14,262 nt of DNA from a virus (taxonomy: Duplodnaviria > Heunggongvirae > Uroviricota > Caudoviricetes), in IMG/VR virus record IMGVR_UViG_2695420747_000011, positions 1-14,262 of that record; one strand, written 5' to 3'. Positions 1-14,262 of the stretch are shown one piece after another. Within the stretch, counting starts at the first letter, position 1; each line of letters begins with the position of its first letter. The notes under the pieces are model-generated. The model saw nothing but the letters and a program-made list of their open reading frames with translations. It ran no database searches and was not told where the DNA came from. Made by a program: the position numbers and the translations under genes.

Positions 1-198
1 ATCCGGTGGCTCTGCAATCACCTTTATCGCCAGCCTTCCGGACAGGCTTAATTTCAGCCGCTGCTGGCGAACAATAAGCGCCACAGCCCGGCGATAACGC
101 TTTCCCTCCTCCGAGATAAAATATGTGCTGCCACGGCGTCGCCAGTAAGTGTTCACCGTCGGCGGGTAAGGTAAAACAAATTCTATGCGCTCGGTCAT
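1..198 (-). CDS. rusA: RusA-like Holliday junction resolvase, N-terminal 66 codons only (gene runs off the window start)
   Basis: Hand translation of the minus strand from ATG 198-196 gives MTERIEFVLPYPPTVNTYWRRRGSTYFISEEGKRYRRAVALIVRQQRLKLSLSGRLAIKVIAEPPD, open to position 1. The LPxPPxxNxYxR motif matches my recollection of the RusA N-terminus (LPWPPSNNRYYR). The ATG directly follows the TAA stop (201-199) of the upstream minus-strand gene. Not in the ORF track because it is partial. Confidence 0.6.
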   Translation of the reverse strand, partial: MTERIEFVLPYPPTVNTYWRRRGSTYFISEEGKRYRRAVALIVRQQRLKLSLSGRLAIKVIAEPPD

Positions 199-1257
199 TT
201 ATGCTTTCCACTTCAGAACACCCGAATTTCTCGCGTGCATTAAAAAACGAATCAGCAACAACAGCTGACTGCCGTGTTTCTCTTCAAAATCTTTTACTCC
301 GGCATGTAGTTCGTTACGGCATTTACGGCATAACGGAATAACAAACAAATCATCAGCCTTTGTTCCCATCCCTCCCAGTCCATGACCAATGATGTGATGC
401 GGATCATCTGCCTGATTGCCACACGTCATGCATTTCTGCGTTTTTACCCAGCGCGTGTATACAGGCATCTCTTCCCGTTGTGATTTCTGGCGCTGGAGAT
501 ACTGAGCCGGTGACTCCGGATCAACGGCAATGCTGACCACCGTCTTTTCCTGTGGTGGGTTCTGTTGCTGGTGGACGTGAGGCAGTAACGCAATATTTTT
601 TGTGCGCTGCTTCAGTATGCTGGTGGCGGTCTGCTCTCCCGGTATGATGTCGCTTTCACTGTACACAGAGCGAATTTTTTCCGCACGCAACCCCAGCGAA
701 CGACGTAATACCGCTTCCGGTAGCGCGTCCGCCACCTGATTGCGGACCGCCCACCAGGATAATTCAGCCAGAGATAATTCACGCTCCTGCGTACCGCTTA
801 TTGCGTGACCGATGACGTCAATCATCCATGCTGACAGGTTTTGATGAGCAAGTTGCCCGAGTGATTCGGATGTCTGGTCACGCAGCTGGTTGTCGCAGTG
901 CCAGCACAACACCATTGCGCCGGTACCATAACGGTGAATGACGGTTTCGCTGTGATGATAATCGCCGTGTGGCCACTGGCAGGATTTAATATGGCGCAAC
1001 AGCCAGTCAGACAATGCACCAGCACCACCAGCAGCACGAATCACCCGTGCGTTACTGAAAAACGGCAGCAATGTTTTGTCTTCCACCAGCGGCTGGCGAG
1101 CGGCAGGAACGACCCCGGACGGCAGATTACGCATGCTTTTTGGTTCCGGCTCCACCAGTATTCTGCCGTTATGGAATGCTGACATTGATTCACGGCCTGG
1201 CTTAACGATAACCAGACCGAGTTCCGGTACCAGAACAGATCGAAGTAATACCCGCAC
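199..1257 (-). CDS. DUF968/YdfU-like protein with C-terminal Cys/His (HNH-like) zinc-finger motif
   Basis: 352-codon ORF; the first codon is GTG at 1257-1255, preceded by GGAGG (1266-1262). The C-terminus has CMTCGN...DPHHIIGHG...CRKCRNELH, an HNH/His-Me-finger-like arrangement. Position before rusA in a nin-like region. Family name is from memory, not a search. Confidence 0.55.
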   Translation of the reverse strand: MRVLLRSVLVPELGLVIVKPGRESMSAFHNGRILVEPEPKSMRNLPSGVVPAARQPLVEDKTLLPFFSNARVIRAAGGAGALSDWLLRHIKSCQWPHGDYHHSETVIHRYGTGAMVLCWHCDNQLRDQTSESLGQLAHQNLSAWMIDVIGHAISGTQERELSLAELSWWAVRNQVADALPEAVLRRSLGLRAEKIRSVYSESDIIPGEQTATSILKQRTKNIALLPHVHQQQNPPQEKTVVSIAVDPESPAQYLQRQKSQREEMPVYTRWVKTQKCMTCGNQADDPHHIIGHGLGGMGTKADDLFVIPLCRKCRNELHAGVKDFEEKHGSQLLLLIRFLMHARNSGVLKWKA

Positions 1258-1258
1258 A

Positions 1259-1537
1259 TTACCTCCAGATCCGTTGCTGGAATGTGCGGGACGGACGCGC
1301 TGGCCGTTCTGAGTAAGGGAGCCTGACGGAGATTATCCAGTGACGGTAGTCGAGGCTAAGGGCTTTTTTAACCTCGCATCCGCGCCCGCGGTAACACTGA
1401 ATGAGCCATTCAGCCTGTTCTTCGGTGCAGGGGTCGTGCTGATACCAGTCAGATTTGAATGCATGAGAACGCCGCCCGTGCCTGCTGGCAGGGGCGGCAG
1501 AGTTATCCGAATTGTAAAATTTGGTATCGTGCGCCAT
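1259..1537 (-). CDS. hypothetical protein, about 91 aa (occupies the position of rem in Qin-type prophages)
   Basis: The track ORF 1259..1666 would run through an intrinsic terminator at 1607-1636, so the internal ATG at 1537-1535 (MAHDTKFYNSD...) is the more plausible start. Stop TAA at 1261-1259 abuts the GGAGG/GTG start of the next gene. No recognisable motif. Confidence 0.4.
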   Translation of the reverse strand: MAHDTKFYNSDNSAAPASRHGRRSHAFKSDWYQHDPCTEEQAEWLIQCYRGRGCEVKKALSLDYRHWIISVRLPYSERPARPSRTFQQRIWR

Positions 1538-1606
1538 CTGTTTTCTCTGCTGGCGCAGCAGGTGCCAGTTGTTCAGGCTGACGGATGGATTGTAAACCAG
1601 AACGAC

Positions 1607-1636
1607 CAGAAAAAACAAAACCCGCCGAAGCGGGTT
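1607..1636 (-). terminator. Rho-independent terminator downstream of hok
   Basis: On the minus strand: AACCCGC-TTCG-GCGGGTT followed by TTTGTTTTTT (plus-strand stem arms 1619-1625 and 1630-1636; A-run 1609-1620). Confidence 0.6.
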
Positions 1637-1704
1637 AAGTGCGGGTGCGTTGAGGATGCCTGACACATCAGCGGTGGCGAGGGATTTCTCCCCCGCCGGG
1701 TCTC

Positions 1705-1860
1705 TTACTCCTCAGGTTCGTAAGCTGTGAAGACAGCGACCTCCGTCTGGCCGGTTCGGATTCGTACCTCGCAGAGGTCTTTCCTCGTTACCAGTGCCGT
1801 CACCATGACGGTTAAACAGATGACGATCAGGGCGATTAGCATCGCCTTTTGCTGCTTCAT
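1705..1860 (-). CDS. hok: Hok/Gef-family type I toxin (51 aa, membrane-active)
   Basis: MKQQKAMLIALIVICLTVMVTALVTRKDLCEVRIRTGQTEVAVFTAYEPEE has the typical Hok/Gef/RelF N-terminal TM helix plus the conserved C...C periplasmic tail. It is near-identical to what I recall for HokD/RelF. SD AAGGAG lies about 9 nt upstream of ATG 1860. Confidence 0.85.
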   Translation of the reverse strand: MKQQKAMLIALIVICLTVMVTALVTRKDLCEVRIRTGQTEVAVFTAYEPEE

Positions 1861-1917
1861 AGCCTGCTTCTCCTTGCCTTTCGGCACGTAAGAGGCTAAC
1901 CTACGTGTGTAGAGCAT
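1705..1917 (-). CDS. mok: mok-like overlapping reading frame (in-frame N-terminal extension of hok, 70 codons)
   Basis: The track ORF MLYTRRLASYVPKGKEKQA-MKQQKAM... starts 57 nt upstream of the hok ATG in the same frame, as in mokC/hokC. By analogy it would couple hok translation. Confidence 0.55.
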   Translation of the reverse strand: MLYTRRLASYVPKGKEKQAMKQQKAMLIALIVICLTVMVTALVTRKDLCEVRIRTGQTEVAVFTAYEPEE

Positions 1918-2151
1918 AGATATGGCCTCAGATTAATGTTAAGCGTCTTGCCGGACGCGTAATGTTAACTGGGGCTTTTCTCTATCTGCCTTTTGGTGTT
2001 CATGCCTGAGACAGATAGCCTCAAGCACCCGCTGCAATTCTACTTAACTCTCCTTTTCCCGCAAACCGTTTTTATCCCCAGCGGCAAATCGAATACACCA
2101 CCAGCGCCACCGCCATCGCAATTCCTACCGTTGTTAATGCTTCAGGCCAGC

Positions 2152-3054
2152 TCATTGATTCACCTCCTGCGGCGGTTCTGGTAGCGGCATCCAGTGTGAC
2201 GGTTTCCACGACGCACCAGGAATTATCCACCCATCATTAGCGTCAGGATGCCCGGGGATGTAAGTAGCCCATTTCATTCGCCAGTCACCTTTCCTGTCAA
2301 ACTCCACGGCAACAAGAACGGCTGTTTTGGTATTCGGCATTCGCTCACTACAGCTTATCCAACCATCCGGAGTTGCCGGAGAGTTGCCCGATAGTGCATT
2401 CTGCTCCAGTGATGCTTTTACAAACCACGCTGCCTGAACTATAACGCCATGAATCCAGCGCAAATCAGCATCGCGATCTTTCTTTTTCATCTTTTCGCCA
2501 CTTAAGGCCTTGCTTATGTGGCTGCGTACCAGGTCTTCATGTAATTCCTTCGCCTCCTCAATGGTGAAACCACCAGGCAGAAGAGCCGGAGTTACCGGAG
2601 AGCTGGTTGACGCTTCCGGGATTTCCCGAAAATTATTGGTTGACGAATTCTTGCTTTCCCGAAAGTTTCCGGACTGAAGCATGGCGGTGCGGCAGGCGTT
2701 CCATATTTCGGCAGCAATATCGCGCTCGCTATCGGTTAATTTGTACGTGGAAACATAGCCAGAGAGCATTTCTACGTTTTCCGGAGTTGCTTCTTCCGGC
2801 ACTACCGGCGCTGGCGGGGCGATGCGTCCAAGCAACTTATTTACCTCTTTCGCCATCGCGTCATATTTATCTAAATGGCGATTAGCTTCTAAGCAGACTC
2901 GGCGCATCTGATCTGAGTTAACTCGTTTAACTGGATCTGCTTCCAGCGATGCCAGCGCAATCCGTGCCAGTTCCATTTGTTCACCACGGGTAAGCCCGTT
3001 TTCAAGCGGGTTTTTAATGAACAATTCAATACGTTCTTTGGTAATAGTGGTCAT
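2152..3054 (-). CDS. phage protein with C-terminal DUF551-like domain
   Basis: 300 codons. SD AAGGAG lies 6 nt upstream of ATG 3054. The C-terminus (...DGWISCSERMPNTKTAVLVAV...W...WMPLPEPP) matches my recollection of the DUF551 signature common in enterobacterial prophages. Confidence 0.55.
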   Translation of the reverse strand: MTTITKERIELFIKNPLENGLTRGEQMELARIALASLEADPVKRVNSDQMRRVCLEANRHLDKYDAMAKEVNKLLGRIAPPAPVVPEEATPENVEMLSGYVSTYKLTDSERDIAAEIWNACRTAMLQSGNFRESKNSSTNNFREIPEASTSSPVTPALLPGGFTIEEAKELHEDLVRSHISKALSGEKMKKKDRDADLRWIHGVIVQAAWFVKASLEQNALSGNSPATPDGWISCSERMPNTKTAVLVAVEFDRKGDWRMKWATYIPGHPDANDGWIIPGASWKPSHWMPLPEPPQEVNQ

Positions 3055-3064
3055 GTGTTACTCC

Positions 3065-3328
3065 TTAACCCGCAGTGCTTTCAACTGATGAGGGGAACAA
3101 AATCTTTTCATCAAACCCTGCATTCATATCATGGACAGCAACACACCAATCCATTGACGAACGATTATCAAGAGCCTCCATGATTTCATCCATGCGGCGT
3201 AGGTCATACAGGTAAATGCTTTTATCGCCAATGGTGTAAAAACCAATTTTTTTCGGTGATGGACAGCGATCAAGAACGTCCTGTAATTCGTTCAACCATG
3301 CCTGTTCTTTTTTTGTCAAAGTTGCCAT
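3065..3328 (-). CDS. hypothetical protein (87 aa)
   Basis: Start chosen at the internal ATG 3328-3326 (MATLTKKEQAW...), which has AAGGAAAA upstream and sits 1 nt after the stop of the preceding gene. The longer track ORF (to 3418) overlaps that gene. Confidence 0.5.
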   Translation of the reverse strand: MATLTKKEQAWLNELQDVLDRCPSPKKIGFYTIGDKSIYLYDLRRMDEIMEALDNRSSMDWCVAVHDMNAGFDEKILFPSSVESTAG

Positions 3329-3329
3329 A

Positions 3330-3548
3330 TCAGTTTTCCTTATACGGATTAATTTTATTGTGCAGTGTGTTGAACGGAGCCCATACCACGTCGTTATACA
3401 ATTCAATAACTGGCTCAATTATTTTTCCGATTCCCCATACCAGAATTAACGGGGATATCGGTATCATCAACACGATAAACAGAATGAGAAACAAAAATTC
3501 TGTCGCTCTACTTTTTCGCGGATATTCTTTTCTGAATAATGTAGGCAC
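3330..3548 (-). CDS. small single-pass membrane protein (72 aa)
   Basis: GTG start at 3548 with AAGGAG about 7 nt upstream. Contains a 24-residue hydrophobic stretch, FLFLILFIVLMIPISPLILVWGIG. The segment looks AT-rich by eye. Confidence 0.45.
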   Translation of the reverse strand: MPTLFRKEYPRKSRATEFLFLILFIVLMIPISPLILVWGIGKIIEPVIELYNDVVWAPFNTLHNKINPYKEN

Positions 3549-3549
3549 A

Positions 3550-3765
3550 TCACTCTCCTTTGTTGCTCCTCAAAATTTTATGCCTTGGCGCAAAAGCACG
3601 CGTTTTGTCGGCACTTATTCGCCACCCATCTTTACGTGCCTCTTTTGCACAGCCAGCCCATGACGTACCGATATACTCACCAAAATCTGGCGACTGATAT
3701 TTGCCATCCGTACACTGGCGGCAATCACAATAGAGATGCATGGTATAACTTGCGGCAATACCCAT
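3550..3765 (-). CDS. hypothetical Cys-rich small protein (71 aa)
   Basis: ATG 3765 immediately follows the upstream stop (3768-3766) and is preceded by AAGGAGG. Contains CDCRQC. Confidence 0.45.
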   Translation of the reverse strand: MGIAASYTMHLYCDCRQCTDGKYQSPDFGEYIGTSWAGCAKEARKDGWRISADKTRAFAPRHKILRSNKGE

Positions 3766-4125
3766 TCAGCCTCCTTTGATGCCCGTGTTTACAACCAGGC
3801 AGGCCTCCTTGAGTACCCAGTCAATAGCGTCTTTCCATGCTCCGGTTTCAACTGGCGGATCCTCACGCCGTACCTGTTCATAAAAGCGCACAGCTTTAAC
3901 CAGTCCTTCTGATGTCACCGAAGCTGGCGGGGCCGTGAATAACGCCTGAATTTCATAGTTTGGTCTGTCGTTACAATCCTCTTTTGTCGGGACATATTTC
4001 CAGTCACCAACCCACTGCTTCCCCTGAAAGTCTGTAACGCCTTTTTTCACGTAGCGATATCGCCATGCCACTGGTTTTGCCTGCCCTACCTTTTCATGCC
4101 CTTCCTGATAATTAATCTCGCTCAT
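3766..4125 (-). CDS. hypothetical protein (119 aa)
   Basis: ATG 4125-4123 overlaps the stop of the upstream small ORF as ATGA. Protein-like composition; no recognised motif. Confidence 0.5.
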   Translation of the reverse strand: MSEINYQEGHEKVGQAKPVAWRYRYVKKGVTDFQGKQWVGDWKYVPTKEDCNDRPNYEIQALFTAPPASVTSEGLVKAVRFYEQVRREDPPVETGAWKDAIDWVLKEACLVVNTGIKGG

Positions 4126-4298
4126 TCATCGCCCCACTCATCACAATATGCTTCGACCGGTGTTTTCCCTGCTTCATAATCATCACGCCATGCTTCAGCA
4201 TCAGCGGCACTTCCACCGCGTAACTCTGCATAATCCATTAACAGTTCATGCCATTCTTCAAAACTGGCGTTATATTTAGTTGAACCAAAATCAGCCAT
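4122..4298 (-). CDS. hypothetical acidic small protein (58 aa); not in the ORF track (under 60 aa)
   Basis: Hand translation: MADFGSTKYNASFEEWHELLMDYAELRGGSAADAEAWRDDYEAGKTPVEAYCDEWGDE. Start ATG 4298 overlaps the upstream stop (ATGGCTGA); its stop overlaps the next ATG (ATGA). Confidence 0.4.
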   Translation of the reverse strand: MADFGSTKYNASFEEWHELLMDYAELRGGSAADAEAWRDDYEAGKTPVEAYCDEWGDE

Positions 4299-4473
4299 TT
4301 TGTTCTTCCTCTTCGTCTTTTATTTCGTGGTATGAGTAATTGCAGTAGTTAAAGAAAATATCTTTAGCTTCATCCTGTATTTCATCTGGTGTTGCATCAT
4401 CATCCACTTCGAATTCATCCTCGAAATCTCCACCGGCTATTCCCGTTTCAATAATTATTTTGAATTTTCGCAT
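4291..4473 (-). CDS. hypothetical very acidic small protein (60 aa)
   Basis: ATG 4473. About one third of residues are D/E (FEDEFEVDDDATPDEIQDEAKD...KDEEEEQ). Confidence 0.45.
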   Translation of the reverse strand: MRKFKIIIETGIAGGDFEDEFEVDDDATPDEIQDEAKDIFFNYCNYSYHEIKDEEEEQNG

Positions 4474-4601
4474 TTCACTACCGCCCTTTCGGACGGCCTC
4501 CTGATGTTCTGAGGGTGCAGGAATCCCTCCGGTTAAGGATTTAATAAAAATCGTTTCTGATTTAAATCTTCAGTATTTAGTTGTTAGTCGGTTTATAGCC
4601 T

Positions 4602-4913
4602 TTATGCTTCGGCCTTATTTCTCAGCCATACACAAACCGGGCCATCTTCGGTGTCATGTATTGAACCAATAAACCATCCATTGCCCTCTGGTCGTTCCGG
4701 TTCCCATGCAGAAATATCAGCATCACACGCATCAAGGTCAGCACATCCTTCATCTCTGAAGCAGAGGACGTATTGAAGATTATTTTCCTCCATCCAGGCG
4801 TTAAACTCTTCCGTTGAAATATATTCCCGACCGTCACAGAATTTTTCATATTCAGGATGCGTCCAGTAGCCATATTCATCACGTACTACTGGTATTTCTT
4901 TAATTTCATTCAT
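4602..4913 (-). CDS. hypothetical acidic protein (103 aa)
   Basis: ATG 4913 overlaps the upstream stop by 8 nt (ATGAATGA). D/E- and W-rich; no recognised motif. Confidence 0.5.
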   Translation of the reverse strand: MNEIKEIPVVRDEYGYWTHPEYEKFCDGREYISTEEFNAWMEENNLQYVLCFRDEGCADLDACDADISAWEPERPEGNGWFIGSIHDTEDGPVCVWLRNKAEA

Positions 4914-5160
4914 TTCTGTTCTCCCACGTTTTCAGACTTTCACCACAGAACGGACAAAATGAAACCCGAACTGGTAATTTAGAAAATTCACCGGAACGCA
5001 ACATCACAAAATCAGGACCGCGAGTTAAACTCTCATTCCAGATTTTGTATATCAGCAGACCTTTTCGCATCGTGTATTCAGCATCATGCTCAAGGGATTT
5101 TGCCAGGGTCGTACACGGTTCTATCTTGTTGCCATAAACCTGGCATTTTGATTTACCCAC
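4906..5160 (-). CDS. hypothetical protein (84 aa) with two Cys pairs
   Basis: GTG start at 5160 with GAAGGAGG upstream; overlaps the methyltransferase stop by 8 nt. Has C6/C16 and a CPFC pair. Confidence 0.45.
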   Translation of the reverse strand: MGKSKCQVYGNKIEPCTTLAKSLEHDAEYTMRKGLLIYKIWNESLTRGPDFVMLRSGEFSKLPVRVSFCPFCGESLKTWENRNE

Positions 5161-5641
5161 TGGTCGCCTCCTTCACAAAAATAATCCAATGTGTTTTATC
5201 GTTCTTACCGGTGCGCTGGCTGATGATTGGTTTCGCGTCGGTTAGTGCCAATATCTGGCGGACAGATATTTGCGTTTCATTCCATTTAAAAATCAGAACG
5301 CCATGTGGCCACAACACACGAAAAGCTTCTTTAAATCCCTGCCGCAAATCATCACGCCAGGTATCTTTATTCAACCGTCCATATTTCTTTCCCATCCAGG
5401 CTTTATCACCAACACACTCAAGATGCGGAGGGTCGAATACAACAACCGGAAACGATGCGTCTGCAAATGGTAATGCTCGAAAATCTGCTATCAGGTCAGG
5501 ACTGATAATCAGGCGTCGTCCATCACACAATGTGTGCTCTTCTTTTCTGATATCGCTAAATATCGCCCGGTCGTCATTCTTATCGAACCAGAACATACGG
5601 CTGCCACAGCACATATCAAGAATGGTTGCCGGTGCACTCAC
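5153..5641 (-). CDS. small SAM-dependent DNA methyltransferase (N6-adenine/N4-cytosine type, DPPH motif)
   Basis: ILDMCCGSR (glycine-rich SAM-binding motif I) is followed about 55 aa later by VVVFDPPH (catalytic motif IV, D-P-P-aromatic/H). Start set at GTG 5641-5639, which has AGGAGG 7 nt upstream and forms a GTGA overlap with the upstream stop. The track ORF extends to 5710 without an ATG. Confidence 0.6.
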   Translation of the reverse strand: MSAPATILDMCCGSRMFWFDKNDDRAIFSDIRKEEHTLCDGRRLIISPDLIADFRALPFADASFPVVVFDPPHLECVGDKAWMGKKYGRLNKDTWRDDLRQGFKEAFRVLWPHGVLIFKWNETQISVRQILALTDAKPIISQRTGKNDKTHWIIFVKEATSG

Positions 5642-5793
5642 TGCGCTACCTCCTGAAAATTCCCCTGATAAAACGCCAGTACGCGCTGCATAACTTCGCT
5701 CTTCCGGCACTCGCGACAGATTATGTTCTGACGCCTGTCGTAGCGACGTATTTCTCCGTCAGGTAATAGCCAGATAAGGTCCGGATCAACCAC
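5638..5793 (-). CDS. possible small ORF (about 51 aa), or the frameshifted C-terminal part of the upstream HTH gene
   Basis: C-terminal part of track ORF 5638..5961 (VVDPDLIWLLPDGEIRRYDRRQNIICRECRKSEVMQRVLAFYQGNFQEVAQ). Candidate GTG start at 5793 overlaps the upstream stop by 8 nt. Its 3' end carries the SD and GTGA overlap for the methyltransferase. Confidence 0.3.
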   Translation of the reverse strand: MVDPDLIWLLPDGEIRRYDRRQNIICRECRKSEVMQRVLAFYQGNFQEVAQ

Positions 5794-6061
5794 AGATGGT
5801 TTCTTCAGCTTTGCCCTTGAGAGTTTTTTTGCGGGCGTTTTGCCAGTCCTTGCGCGCCTGCTCAGACGGGAATACTCCGTAACCGGAATTGTAAACATCA
5901 CCACTGGCGGCCAGCTCCATGCATAAACGACCGACAGACGTATGACTGACACCAATTTCATCCGATAACTGCCGAATCGTGCCTCGTCCGTTAAGGCGTA
6001 CGAATTCCACGATCAGCCCTTTAATTTTTTCCCGCTCTTCTTGTGTAAAAACTTTTGCCAC
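5786..6061 (-). CDS. small HTH DNA-binding protein (91 aa)
   Basis: GTG start at 6061 with AGGAGG 4 nt upstream. Putative helix-turn-helix TIRQLSDEIGVSHTSVGRL. Lies immediately downstream of the O-like gene. Confidence 0.5.
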   Translation of the reverse strand: MAKVFTQEEREKIKGLIVEFVRLNGRGTIRQLSDEIGVSHTSVGRLCMELAASGDVYNSGYGVFPSEQARKDWQNARKKTLKGKAEETICG

Positions 6062-6101
6062 AAGTCCTCCTGAAAATTACCTCATGACCAGAAATTAACA
6101 C

Positions 6102-10483: not shown

Positions 10484-12958
10484 ATGAGTAAAGTCTTTAT
10501 TTGCGCCGCCATTCCGGACGAACAGGCAATAAAGGAAGAAGGTGCCGTCGCTGTAGCCACTGCCATTGAAGCCGGTGATGAACGTCGCGCCCGCGCAAAA
10601 TTTCACTGGCAATTCCTGGAGCATTATCCGGCTGCTCAGGACTGCGCTTATAAATTTCTTGTCTGCGAGGATAAACCCGGTATACCCCGCCCTGCCCTCG
10701 ATTCCTGGGATGCTGAATATATGCAGGAAAACCGCTGGGATGAGGAGTCTGCTTCCTTTGTCCCGGTTGAGACTGAATCCGATCCGATGAACGTCACTTT
10801 TGACAAGCTGGCCCCTGAAGTACAGAACGCTGTCATGGTTAAGTTCGACACATGTGAAAACATCACCGTTGATATGGTTATTAGCGCACAGGAATTGTTG
10901 CAGGAAGACATGGCAACATTCGACGGACATATCGTTGAAGCGTTGATGAAAATGCCAGAAGTTAACGCCATGTATCCGGAGCTTAAGCTGCATGCCATCG
11001 GGTGGGTTAAGCATAAATGTAAGCCTGGTGCCAAATGGCCCGAAATTCAGGCAGAGATGCGCATCTGGAAAAAACGTCGCGAAGGTGAACGCAAGGAAAC
11101 CGGAAAATACACGTCTGTTGTTGATCTCGCCCGCGCCAGAGTCAATCAACAGAACACTGAAAACTCAGCAGGAAAAATCAACCCAGTCACTGCCGCCATT
11201 TGTCGCGAATACAAGCAGACATGGAAAACGCTGGATGAAGAACTGGCCTACGCTCTCTGGCCTGGCGATATTGATACCGGAAACATTGACGGCAGCATCC
11301 ATCGCTGGGCAAAAAATGAAGTTATCGACAAAGATCGCGAAGACTGGAAGCGCATTTCCGCATCAATGCGCAAACAACCCGATGCCGTTCGCTACGACCG
11401 TCAGACTATTTTTGGCCTTGTCCGTGAGCGTCCGATCGACATTCACAAAGATCCCGTAGCACTGAACAAATACATCACTGAATACCTGACTACCAAGGGC
11501 GTGTTTGAAGATGACGAAGGAACAAATCAGGGCACAGCTGGTACTCTCCCGTCACCAGTACCAGAAACTGATGCAGTGGAAACGGCAATGCCGGACAACG
11601 AAAAAACCGAATGCGAAGTGGAAGACGAACCATCTGTAGAGCGTGAGGGACCGTTCTACTTCCTTTTCACCGATAAGGACGGCGAAAAATACGGTCGCGC
11701 AAACAAACTTTCTGGTCTGGAAAAAGCACTGGCCCTGGGAGCTACGGAAATCACAAAAGAGGAATACTTCGCACGTAAAAACGGTACATACTCAGGTTCA
11801 CAACAAAATACTGGTGCATCTGACACGACCGCACAACCAGAGCCAGTAAAAGTTACCGCTGACGAAGTAAACAAAATTATGCAGGCAGCCAATATCAGCC
11901 AGCCTGACGCCGATGAACTGCTTGCAGTATCACGTGGTGAATTTGTTGAAGGGATTAGCGACCCGAATGATCCGAAATGGGTTAAGGGGAACCAGACCCG
12001 CGATTCTGTGAACCAGAACCAGCAAGAAACGGAACAGAACGACCAGAAAGCGGAACAAAACAGCCCAAATGCGTTACAAAACGAGCCAGAAACGAAACAG
12101 CCTGAATCAGTGGCGCAACAGGAAGTGGAAAAAGTCTGCACCGCCTGCGGTCAGACCGGCGGCGGCAACTGCCCTGATTGTGGCGCGGTAATGGGCGACG
12201 CAACATACCAGGAAACATTCGATGAAGAGTATCAGCCTGAAGTTCAGGAAGATGATCCAGAGGAAATGGAAGGCGCTGAACATCCACACAAGGAGAACAC
12301 TGGCGGCAATCAGCATCACGATAGCGATAATGAAACTGGCGAGACGGCAGATCACTCAATTAAGGTGAACGGTCATCAAGAAATCACATCCACCAGCAGA
12401 ATGTGGCACCACATGATGATCGACCTTGAAACCATGGGAAAAAATCCCGATGCCCCGCTTATCTCAATAGGTGCAATATTTTTCGATCCGCAAACCGGAG
12501 ATATGGGGCCGGAATTTAGTAAGACCATCGATATGGATACTGCTGGCGGAGTCATTGATCGTGGCACCATTAAATGGTGGCTTAAGCAATCACGGGAGGC
12601 GCAATCTGCCATTCTGACCGATGAAATCCCGTTAGATGATGCACTGCTGCAATTGCGGGAATTTATCGACGAAAACTCCGGCGAATTTTTTGTTCAGGTC
12701 TGGGGAAATGGAGCCAACTTCGACAACACGATTTTGCGCCGTTCATACGAACGGCAGGGGATCCCCTGCCCGTGGCGTTACTACAACGATCGCGATGTAC
12801 GCACAATCGTTGAGCTGGGAAAAGCCATGGACTTCGATGCCAGGGCGGCTATTCCATTCGAAGGTGAGCGCCACAATGCGCTGGATGATGCCCGTTACCA
12901 GGCAAAATACGTTTCAACTATCTGGCAAAAACTGATCCCGAATCAGGCTGATTTTTAA
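10484..12958 (+). CDS. prophage exonuclease (824 aa): RecE-like N-terminal/central region, CxxC...CxxC zinc ribbon, C-terminal DEDDh 3'-5' exonuclease domain
   Basis: SD GAGGT precedes ATG 10484. The C-terminal domain has the three DnaQ-like motifs: MMIDLETMG (Exo I), VWGNGANFDNTIL (Exo II) and ERHNALDDARYQ (Exo III with His). A zinc ribbon CTAC...CPDC lies at 12137-12181. Central SRGEFVEGISDPNDPKWVKG and Q/E/N-rich linker resemble what I recall of RecE-type proteins. Confidence 0.7.
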   Translation: MSKVFICAAIPDEQAIKEEGAVAVATAIEAGDERRARAKFHWQFLEHYPAAQDCAYKFLVCEDKPGIPRPALDSWDAEYMQENRWDEESASFVPVETESDPMNVTFDKLAPEVQNAVMVKFDTCENITVDMVISAQELLQEDMATFDGHIVEALMKMPEVNAMYPELKLHAIGWVKHKCKPGAKWPEIQAEMRIWKKRREGERKETGKYTSVVDLARARVNQQNTENSAGKINPVTAAICREYKQTWKTLDEELAYALWPGDIDTGNIDGSIHRWAKNEVIDKDREDWKRISASMRKQPDAVRYDRQTIFGLVRERPIDIHKDPVALNKYITEYLTTKGVFEDDEGTNQGTAGTLPSPVPETDAVETAMPDNEKTECEVEDEPSVEREGPFYFLFTDKDGEKYGRANKLSGLEKALALGATEITKEEYFARKNGTYSGSQQNTGASDTTAQPEPVKVTADEVNKIMQAANISQPDADELLAVSRGEFVEGISDPNDPKWVKGNQTRDSVNQNQQETEQNDQKAEQNSPNALQNEPETKQPESVAQQEVEKVCTACGQTGGGNCPDCGAVMGDATYQETFDEEYQPEVQEDDPEEMEGAEHPHKENTGGNQHHDSDNETGETADHSIKVNGHQEITSTSRMWHHMMIDLETMGKNPDAPLISIGAIFFDPQTGDMGPEFSKTIDMDTAGGVIDRGTIKWWLKQSREAQSAILTDEIPLDDALLQLREFIDENSGEFFVQVWGNGANFDNTILRRSYERQGIPCPWRYYNDRDVRTIVELGKAMDFDARAAIPFEGERHNALDDARYQAKYVSTIWQKLIPNQADF

Positions 12959-13022
12959 TGTTCAACCCCGGTCGTTGCCCACCAGCTATAGTGGCGGCGA
13001 CCATGATTAGCGAACGACGCTC

Positions 13023-13271
13023 ATGGCAAGACTTATTCTGCTCACTGAGTGGGCAAAAGAGGAATTCAGTGAACCGGTCCCTACTCCGAGTACGTTAAGT
13101 AAATACGCTAAAGCCGGAATGATATTTCCTCTCCCCAAAAAAGTTGGAAGACGCTGGCGAGTGGATCCGCAAGCTCGCTTTGTCGGAATGGTAAACAAGC
13201 CGGAGGTGATCGCCACAGATCACCCTGCTTTGAAGAGGATACTGGAAGATGGCGCGCCCGCGAAAATATAA
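13023..13271 (+). CDS. xis: excisionase-like protein (Xis)
   Basis: 82 aa, MARLILLTEWAKEEF...KVGRRWRV..., resembling enterobacterial prophage excisionase-like proteins. It overlaps the integrase start by 23 bp, as xis/int does in lambda. Confidence 0.7.
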   Translation: MARLILLTEWAKEEFSEPVPTPSTLSKYAKAGMIFPLPKKVGRRWRVDPQARFVGMVNKPEVIATDHPALKRILEDGAPAKI

Positions 13272-14262
13272 AACCGATGTTCCGGGATTATCTCCGTATT
13301 TTGACAAAAGAAATAACAAAGTTTACTGGCGTTACAGGCATCCCATAACAGGCAAAAATCACGGTCTCGGCAGTATTGACCAGAAACTGGCAGAAACTAT
13401 TGCAGCAGAAGCGAACAGCCGTCTTGCCCGGCAGCAAATGGAACAAATGCTCAGTCTGCAGGAGAAAATTATTAGTGATACCGGCGGTTCATCAACCGTT
13501 ACCATTTTTCTGAATAATTACAGAAAAATTCAACAGGAAAGATATGAAAACGGCGAGATCAAACTCAACACGCTGAAACAGAAAGCGGCCCCTCTCAGGG
13601 TATTTGATGAACGTTTTGGCACCAGACCGTTAGATGCCATAACCGTAAAAGATGTGGTATCAGTACTGGAAGAGTACAAGGCCAGAGGACATAACAGAAT
13701 GGGACAAATTTTCAGGAAAGTACTGATCGATGTTTTCCGGGAAGCTCAGCAAACGGGCGATGTCCCGCCAGGCTTTAACCCTGCAGAATCGGCAAAAAAA
13801 CCGCAGGTGCGGATATCAAGACAGCGACTGACTTTTGATGAGTGGATGATGATTTATAACGCAGCGGAAAAGGATGGTTACTTTTTACAGCGCGGTATGC
13901 TGCTGGCACTGATGACAGGCCAGCGCCTTTCAGATATTTGCAAAATGCAATTTTCGGATATCCGGGATGGTTATCTTCATGTCGAACAGCAAAAAACAGG
14001 AACCCGGATTGCCATCCCTCTGGCTCTGCGTTGCGATAAATTAAATCTCACCCTGGATGATGTGGTGTCATCCTGCCGCGATTGCGTTCTTAGTCCGTGG
14101 CTATTGCACCACCATCACGCGAAAGGGACAGCTAAGCGCGGCGGGATGGTTAAGCCAGCAACATTAACCGTTGCATTTAAAAAAGCCCGGGATTCTGTGA
14201 GCAGAGATCTTTATCAGAGCGATTGTTCAGAGAGCAGGGGGTTGATACCAAAATTTTGCTAG
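13249..14262 (+). CDS. int: tyrosine integrase, lambda Int family; reading frame broken near the 3' end (probable frameshift or pseudogene; catalytic C-terminus not present in this frame)
   Basis: N-terminal MARPRKYKTD... Strong by-eye similarity to lambda Int through ...LMTGQRLSDICKMQFSDIRDGYLHVEQQKTGTRIAIPLAL (Arg box I). After AFKK the frame ends at TAG 14260-14262 without the HxxR or Tyr motifs, while the frame starting at 14181 encodes ...FCEQRSLSERLFREQGVDTKILL (box II-like) and is open to the window edge. Confidence 0.7.
   Translation: MARPRKYKTDVPGLSPYFDKRNNKVYWRYRHPITGKNHGLGSIDQKLAETIAAEANSRLARQQMEQMLSLQEKIISDTGGSSTVTIFLNNYRKIQQERYENGEIKLNTLKQKAAPLRVFDERFGTRPLDAITVKDVVSVLEEYKARGHNRMGQIFRKVLIDVFREAQQTGDVPPGFNPAESAKKPQVRISRQRLTFDEWMMIYNAAEKDGYFLQRGMLLALMTGQRLSDICKMQFSDIRDGYLHVEQQKTGTRIAIPLALRCDKLNLTLDDVVSSCRDCVLSPWLLHHHHAKGTAKRGGMVKPATLTVAFKKARDSVSRDLYQSDCSESRGLIPKFC

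Follow-up and report, generated by a model that had tools for sequence, protein, structure and literature searches.

Three families of small acidic proteins in the early operon of a Qin/Rac-type lambdoid prophage of Escherichia coli

The 14.3-kb stretch of DNA analysed here (the window; positions 1 to 14,262 of IMG/VR virus record IMGVR_UViG_2695420747_000011) is 100% identical to part of the Escherichia coli chromosome NZ_OZ547136.1 and is a Qin/Rac-type lambdoid prophage of E. coli. Three consecutive genes on its minus strand encode small proteins of 103, 60 and 58 amino acids (aa), here called p103, p60 and p58, which an original prediction had singled out as candidate DNA mimics or other anti-defence factors on account of their acidity. 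We find that acidity is a conserved trait of the p60 and p103 families and, for the most part, of the p58 family, and sequence comparison indicates that the three proteins represent three unrelated, common and uncharacterised phage families. The genes belong to two separate mosaic cassettes, p60–p58 and p84–p103 (p84 being the gene that precedes p103), of which the second is optional, and they do not form one unit. An anti-defence interpretation is plausible, yet the analysis neither supports nor refutes it; the explanation that we tentatively prefer is that each protein acts alone as an acidic binder of a host or defence protein.

Conservation and acidity of the three families

The open reading frames (ORFs) of the three proteins match coding sequences annotated by RefSeq in the identical chromosome, WP_001002676 for p103, WP_001224665 ('DUF7167 family protein') for p60 and WP_000753053 for p58, and the description of three small, strongly acidic products side by side is borne out. 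p103 contains 25 aspartate or glutamate (D/E) residues against eight lysine or arginine (K/R) residues, giving a net charge of -17 and an isoelectric point (pI) of 4.14; in p60, 20 of the 60 residues are D/E (33%, the one third originally estimated), for a net charge of -15 and a pI of 4.05; and p58, with 16 D/E against four K/R, has a net charge of -12 and a pI of 4.05. Net charges of the remaining 16 ORFs of the same operon lie between -5 and +12. The chance that three marked genes among 19 would be consecutive is 17/969, or 1.8%, a figure that makes the clustering look more remarkable than it is, since p60 and p58 are passed on together.

p60 matches the Pfam family DUF7167 (PF23768) over the entire profile (1–60 of 60), with a score of 54.5 bits against a gathering cutoff of 24.4 (E = 1.2e-14), and the PHROG family phrog_1997 with E = 2.7e-30. 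An exhaustive HMMER search yielded 111 representative clusters of DUF7167, nearly all of them stand-alone proteins of 50–60 aa, found in lambdoid phages, Klebsiella Guernseyvirinae and Enterococcus Herelleviridae. p60 does not differ from this family, being like it in size, in strong acidity and in the motif E-V-x-D-D-A-T-x-E-E-I; among 69 representatives taken at 50% identity, D/E make up 28% of the residues on average and the mean net charge is -11 (range -6 to -18). The AlphaFold2 (AF2) model of p60, which rests on a shallow alignment and has a predicted local distance difference test score (pLDDT) of 75.8, predicts a small alpha/beta domain, beta1(2–10)-beta2(15–23)-alpha(29–40)-beta3(46–51), followed by a disordered acidic tail. 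Two natural DUF7167 proteins (P0271 and P0278) are tandem duplications, which suggests that the family may dimerise. Several frameshifted DUF7167 alleles recur in E. coli (P0168, P0170, P0177, P0179 and P0188), one of them on 107 contigs. In addition, the p60 product of Actinobacillus phage vB_Apl-pPE4 (PP818812.1; recorded host A. pleuropneumoniae) is 95% identical to the E. coli protein, and one Actinobacillus phage record also has a match to p58; host mis-assignment or recent transfer may account for the Actinobacillus p60.

p103 matches phrog_1372 with E = 8.5e-56 and has 236 homologue clusters in Enterobacteriaceae, with relatives at 30–45% identity in temperate phages of Burkholderia, Pseudomonas, Vibrio, Erwinia and Yersinia and in mEp213. 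The mean net charge of the family is -15.6 (range -10 to -20). Its AF2 model (pLDDT 84.6) comprises two helices, a strand, a low-confidence acidic loop (residues ~53–79) and a C-terminal hairpin, a predicted small alpha/beta domain with a flexible acidic loop. The beta-hairpin is conserved (GWFxGSIHDTEDG), and the central loop is variable in sequence and acidic in every distant homologue. A candidate zinc site (H19/C26/H86/C94) was considered and rejected, as the cysteines and H86 are not kept in the Vibrio, Pseudomonas and Burkholderia homologues. Since the Cys and His residues conserved among the enterobacterial members are not conserved in the distant ones, it is improbable that p103 has a metal site.

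p58 belongs to phrog_519 and carries the conserved motif F-x-EWH...GSAADAxAW(R)xDYxxGKTPxxAxxDEWG, whose richness in Trp and Asp suggests a small helical domain; neither Pfam nor the PDB gave a match. Relatives at 55–60% identity occur in Vi01-like Ackermannviridae, a Morganella phage and others, and the distant relatives in Vi01 and the Morganella phage have net charges of -8 and -9. The Morganella phage homologue carries the label 'DUF5419', for which Pfam gave no match even when E <= 10 was allowed. The family is common to temperate phages, virulent Ackermannviridae and IncI2 conjugative plasmids, and a copy of the p58 gene with 87% nucleotide identity is present on ~500 plasmids, mostly conjugative. 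In those examined, which are IncI2 plasmids of the pMCR-1 type, it lies in an operon with the order CaiF/GrlA regulator-DUF1187 (RcbA-like)-p58-SPFH-NfeD that adjoins repA. The homologue in pMCR-1 NZ_CP030766.1 (WP_000753050; locus L127, 5997–6381) overlaps the DUF1187 gene by 8 nucleotides (nt), the same overlap as that of p58 with the DUF7167 gene in the phage.

PHROG places all three families in the category 'unknown function', in agreement with the original caution that their function is open, and no homology to a characterised protein of unrelated function emerged. One might instead take the three for chance or degenerating ORFs that are acidic by accident of composition, given the many frameshifted DUF7167 alleles and the other pseudogenes in the prophage. 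This possibility is effectively refuted by the conservation data, and we give it next to no weight: each family is conserved at the protein level in distant phages with clear hydrophobic/acidic periodicity, and confident folds are predicted for two of the three proteins. Judged by their sequences, all three are real conserved coding genes, with protein-level conservation down to 30–45% identity and hosts in different phyla or classes.

Two cassettes in a mosaic early operon

The rightward early operon on the minus strand of the window runs in the order cro, YdaT, a helix-turn-helix (HTH) replication protein, a frameshifted DUF977 gene, a small methyltransferase gene and p84, and continues with p103, p60, p58, p119, p71, DUF4014, DUF551, hokD and DUF968; RusA and a Q-type antiterminator are located further along in the full identical RefSeq record. 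This gene order, with cro, replication genes, RusA and Q, is the basis on which the operon is assigned as early, as had been proposed. Within the delayed-early rightward operon, the p103, p60 and p58 genes lie in a nin-like accessory region, which has the replication genes on one side and RusA/Q on the other. ORFs of lambdoid nin and early regions are likewise located between replication genes and Q, are packed and overlapping, show mosaicism with sharp junctions and are dispensable, but the named nin genes of lambda or P22 do not include these three families according to PHROG, Pfam and RefSeq annotation.

An 8-nt overlap (ATGGCTGA) joins the p60 stop to the p58 start, which confirms the proposed translational coupling of these two genes; the p58 stop overlaps p119 by 4 nt (ATGA), and the p84 and p103 reading frames overlap by 8 nt. 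A non-coding spacer separates p103 from p60 (Table 1), in which we found no promoter or terminator consensus above shuffled background and no Rfam match, and whose predicted RNA fold is unremarkable (z = -1.9).

To describe the mosaicism we used 80 viral contigs with p60. In every one of them p58 comes next, with p119 after it in most, whereas p84 and p103 are present in only ~20, always paired. In 53 of the 80 contigs the stretch similar to the window breaks off 60–70 nt before the p60 start codon, which places a mosaic junction inside the 128-nt gap. Among 5,426 complete E. coli genomes, counted at >=80% query coverage, the p60–p58 pair occurs in 1,750 (~32%) and p103 in 764 (~14%), and in the lambdoid phages of E. 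coli p103 is always accompanied by p84. The latter is a basic (pI 8.75), Cys-rich (C...C...CxxC) protein, homologous to upf87.4 of P7/P1-like phages and possibly a zinc ribbon. The three genes are therefore adjacent, as originally described, but are not a single set, since they fall into two independent cassettes whose pairings dissolve in distant phages.

Prevalence of this order could be expected of morons, genes that a prophage expresses for the benefit of the lysogen or for exclusion and that protect or alter the host cell, and other prophage-expressed elements, hok/sok and DicF, are present in the window. We nonetheless regard this as very unlikely: the genes lie inside a repressed early lytic operon with overlapping frames and no promoter or terminator signal above background, none has a PADLOC defence match, and homologues are present in strictly virulent phages.

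Outside the lambdoid phages of E. coli, the pairings are lost, and we rejected the idea that either protein has a conserved partner there (p84 for p103, or p58 for p60). In a Klebsiella prophage the DUF7167 gene is followed by a homologue of p71, with p58 not in that place; in D6 and mEp213 the gene preceding the p103 homologue is unrelated to p84, and in mEp213 the p103 homologue directly follows the N gene. Across 20 diverse DUF7167 loci, located by a degenerate DNA pattern, no neighbour family recurs. The larger neighbours at these loci (VapE-like, DnaB_2, SNF2, RecT, SbcC-like, DNA methylase, ribonucleotide reductase (RNR) and HNH) are replication, recombination and nucleotide-metabolism proteins, and in Guernseyvirinae and Enterococcus Herelleviridae DUF7167 adjoins exonuclease, helicase-primase and polymerase genes.

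These neighbourhoods bear on the main rival explanation, in which the proteins would assist the phage itself, in DNA metabolism or in regulation, and would not be aimed at host defence. They might, for example, be acidic partners that modulate or chaperone either the enzymes of replication and recombination or basic DNA-binding proteins of the phage, p84 being one such protein. Such a role would suit the position between the replication genes and RusA, the replication, recombination and nuclease genes that neighbour DUF7167 in diverse phages, the exonuclease genes that it directly overlaps in two phage groups unrelated to each other, and the translational coupling of p103 to basic p84 and of p58 to p60. 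It sits less well with the want of a conserved neighbour family among the 20 loci, with the loss of both pairings outside the E. coli lambdoid phages, with the optional nature of the genes among otherwise similar prophages, and with the presence of p58 on conjugative plasmids in a different operon. On balance we consider an own-DNA role possible but somewhat unlikely.

Stoichiometric binding and DNA mimicry

The explanation that we prefer, with slightly less than even confidence, is that each protein is a stand-alone, non-enzymatic stoichiometric binder, which would be made early after infection or induction and would titrate or block a host or defence protein at its basic, nucleic-acid-binding surface, so that host takeover or counter-defence would be achieved through electrostatic mimicry; both the mechanism and the target are what we infer. 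This reading is drawn from the small size of the proteins, their lack of enzymatic motifs, their conserved negative charge and their early or DNA-metabolism context in unrelated phages, together with cassette-like mobility, dispensability and the occurrence of p58 on conjugative plasmids. Scans of the three proteins and their neighbours with Pfam, NCBIfam and PADLOC matched only DUF7167, DUF4014 and DUF551; for the three proteins themselves we found no catalytic motifs, no PADLOC defence match and, in Pfam and NCBIfam, only the match of p60 to DUF7167. Family-wide acidity, the early or DNA-metabolism placement and the sharing of p58 between phages and plasmids speak in favour of an anti-defence role. 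The only trace of a function in the literature searched is that PaCRISPR, a machine-learning anti-CRISPR predictor, flagged phrog_519 in Kuttervirus genomes (PMC9409062). With respect to Aca-type linkage, no HTH Pfam match was found among the genes scanned in window positions 2152–5710.

A narrower proposal is that the proteins are strict DNA mimics of the Ocr or ArdA type, imitating the phosphate backbone of B-DNA and so blocking type I restriction-modification, BREX or other DNA-binding defences. Like Ocr (T7 gp0.3) and ArdA, the three proteins are small, highly acidic and encoded by a mobile element in an early context, and the strong net negative charge of that type, very high and conserved, is present in all of them; a possible DUF7167 dimer and an orphan DNA methyltransferase gene with a DPPH motif close upstream in this prophage would also fit. 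DNA mimics have a rigid, elongated fold in which carboxylates trace the B-DNA backbone, and are usually dimers. Ocr and ArdA are elongated, helical, DNA-shaped dimers, whereas p103 and p60 are predicted to be compact alpha/beta proteins, and neither model resembles Ocr or ArdA or suggests mimicry, so that the structural comparison proposed originally did not favour this reading. Sequence similarity to such proteins was likewise absent from Pfam (no Ocr/ArdA-family match at E <= 0.1), NCBIfam, PADLOC and the PDB, where neither single sequences nor family profiles gave an Ocr/ArdA-type match and the searches returned only spurious helix-cap matches to designed repeat proteins. Unlike Ocr and ArdA, the three genes are not at a first-entering genome end, and as members of two independent cassettes they are no functional set. 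The prior is also low, DNA mimics making up 11 of 268 catalogued anti-defence proteins (bioRxiv 10.1101/2025.06.06.658234). We therefore think strict mimicry quite improbable.

The closest small solved folds to the p60 model include those of T7 Gp2, with the order beta-beta-alpha-beta, and T4 Dmd, both phage-encoded stoichiometric inhibitors. Gp2 inhibits host RNA polymerase (PDB 2WNM, 2LMC) and Dmd is an antitoxin against RnlA/LsoA (PDB 5HY3 chain B). The resemblance to Gp2 was first guessed from the sequence, ahead of the fold search, and the residues HEIKDE of p60 align with the TRVR strand of Gp2. A bolder proposal is that DUF7167 would be a new family of very small acidic inhibitors, found in phages whose hosts are Gram-negative or Gram-positive, with a Gp2- or Dmd-like beta-beta-alpha-beta body and an acidic tail; its target would be some widely conserved host or defence protein that binds nucleic acid. 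On this proposal p58 and p103 would be unrecognised counter-defence proteins, and the nin-like region of E. coli prophages would be an anti-defence reservoir; we judge this unlikely. The match of p60 to T4 Dmd, at 11% identity, falls below the significance threshold, and the two have no sequence relationship; a Foldseek search of BFVD with the p60 model retrieved no named protein, the matches being small phage proteins, each with E > 0.03.

Several observations weigh against stoichiometric binders directed at host or defence proteins. By hhalign, the DUF7167 profile shows no significant similarity to T7 Gp2 alone (E = 0.43) or to a 23-sequence alignment of the Gp2 family (E = 0.49 global, 0.15 local). 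The DUF7167 motif DDATxEEIEE resembles a generic helix N-cap and matches designed repeat proteins, so that some of the conserved acidity is structural. Frameshifts in DUF7167 alleles are common among E. coli prophages, from which it follows that lysogens can do without the gene. In Salmonella phage Vi01 the p58 homologue (Vi01_151c; locus L087, 2501–2695) is immediately downstream of the major capsid gene, a position that is not obviously early and is at odds with a purely early-gene role. Finally, no functional study of these families was found in the literature searched, including the supplements of the accessory-gene screen of Silas et al.

The surrounding prophage and the reach of the families

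The features of the window are collected in Table 1. On its plus strand are a LexA/cI-like repressor gene, DicF, dicB, a gene for a RecE-sized 3'-5' exonuclease, xis and int. The DicF small RNA belongs to the leftward early operon, with dicB just downstream in the RefSeq annotation, and a complete hok/sok type I toxin-antitoxin locus is present on the minus strand.

Table 1. Positions in the window of the three acidic-protein genes and of other features
Feature	Position	Strand	Description
hok/sok locus	1705–2030	-	complete type I toxin-antitoxin locus
hokD ORF	1705–1917	-	part of hok/sok
Sok antisense RNA	1855–2030		Rfam RF01794, 117 bits
DUF551 region	2152–3054	-	fragments in RefSeq; 300-aa ORF
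p119	3766–4125	-	119 aa, neutral, phrog_660
p58	4122–4298	-	58 aa, phrog_519, PHROG E = 8.5e-23
p60	4291–4473	-	60 aa, Pfam DUF7167 / phrog_1997
p103/p60 spacer	4474–4601	-	128 nt, non-coding
p103	4602–4913	-	103 aa, phrog_1372
p84	4906–5160	-	84 aa, phrog_4030
Methyltransferase	5153–5710	-	small, orphan; 'TRM11 family' in RefSeq
DUF977 gene	5638–6061	-	frameshifted
DicF small RNA	9789–9840	+	Rfam RF00039, 76.7 bits

The methyltransferase gene overlaps p84 by 8 nt, and its product has a DPPH motif of the kind that N6-A/N4-C DNA methyltransferases typically have. None of the 80 related viral contigs with p60 carries the gene, which is for this reason regarded as a rare cassette, possibly a self-modification or anti-restriction gene. 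The DUF551 region is annotated as fragments by RefSeq, yet its ORF is open in the window; from this and the frameshifted DUF977 gene we conclude that parts of the prophage have decayed or that its annotation is inconsistent.

The result is mainly a clean annotation of three families that are catalogued but uncharacterised, and small acidic cassettes emerge as a common, ordinary trait of lambdoid early regions, with no evidence of a system. Their reach is considerable, with p60–p58 in about one third of complete E. coli genomes, DUF7167 extending to Enterococcus phages and p58 carried on mcr-1-type IncI2 plasmids. If any of the three is a counter-defence factor, a new and very widespread family would be added to the roughly 270 known anti-defence proteins, and DUF7167 and the p58 shared by phages and plasmids are the most worthwhile targets for anti-defence assays.
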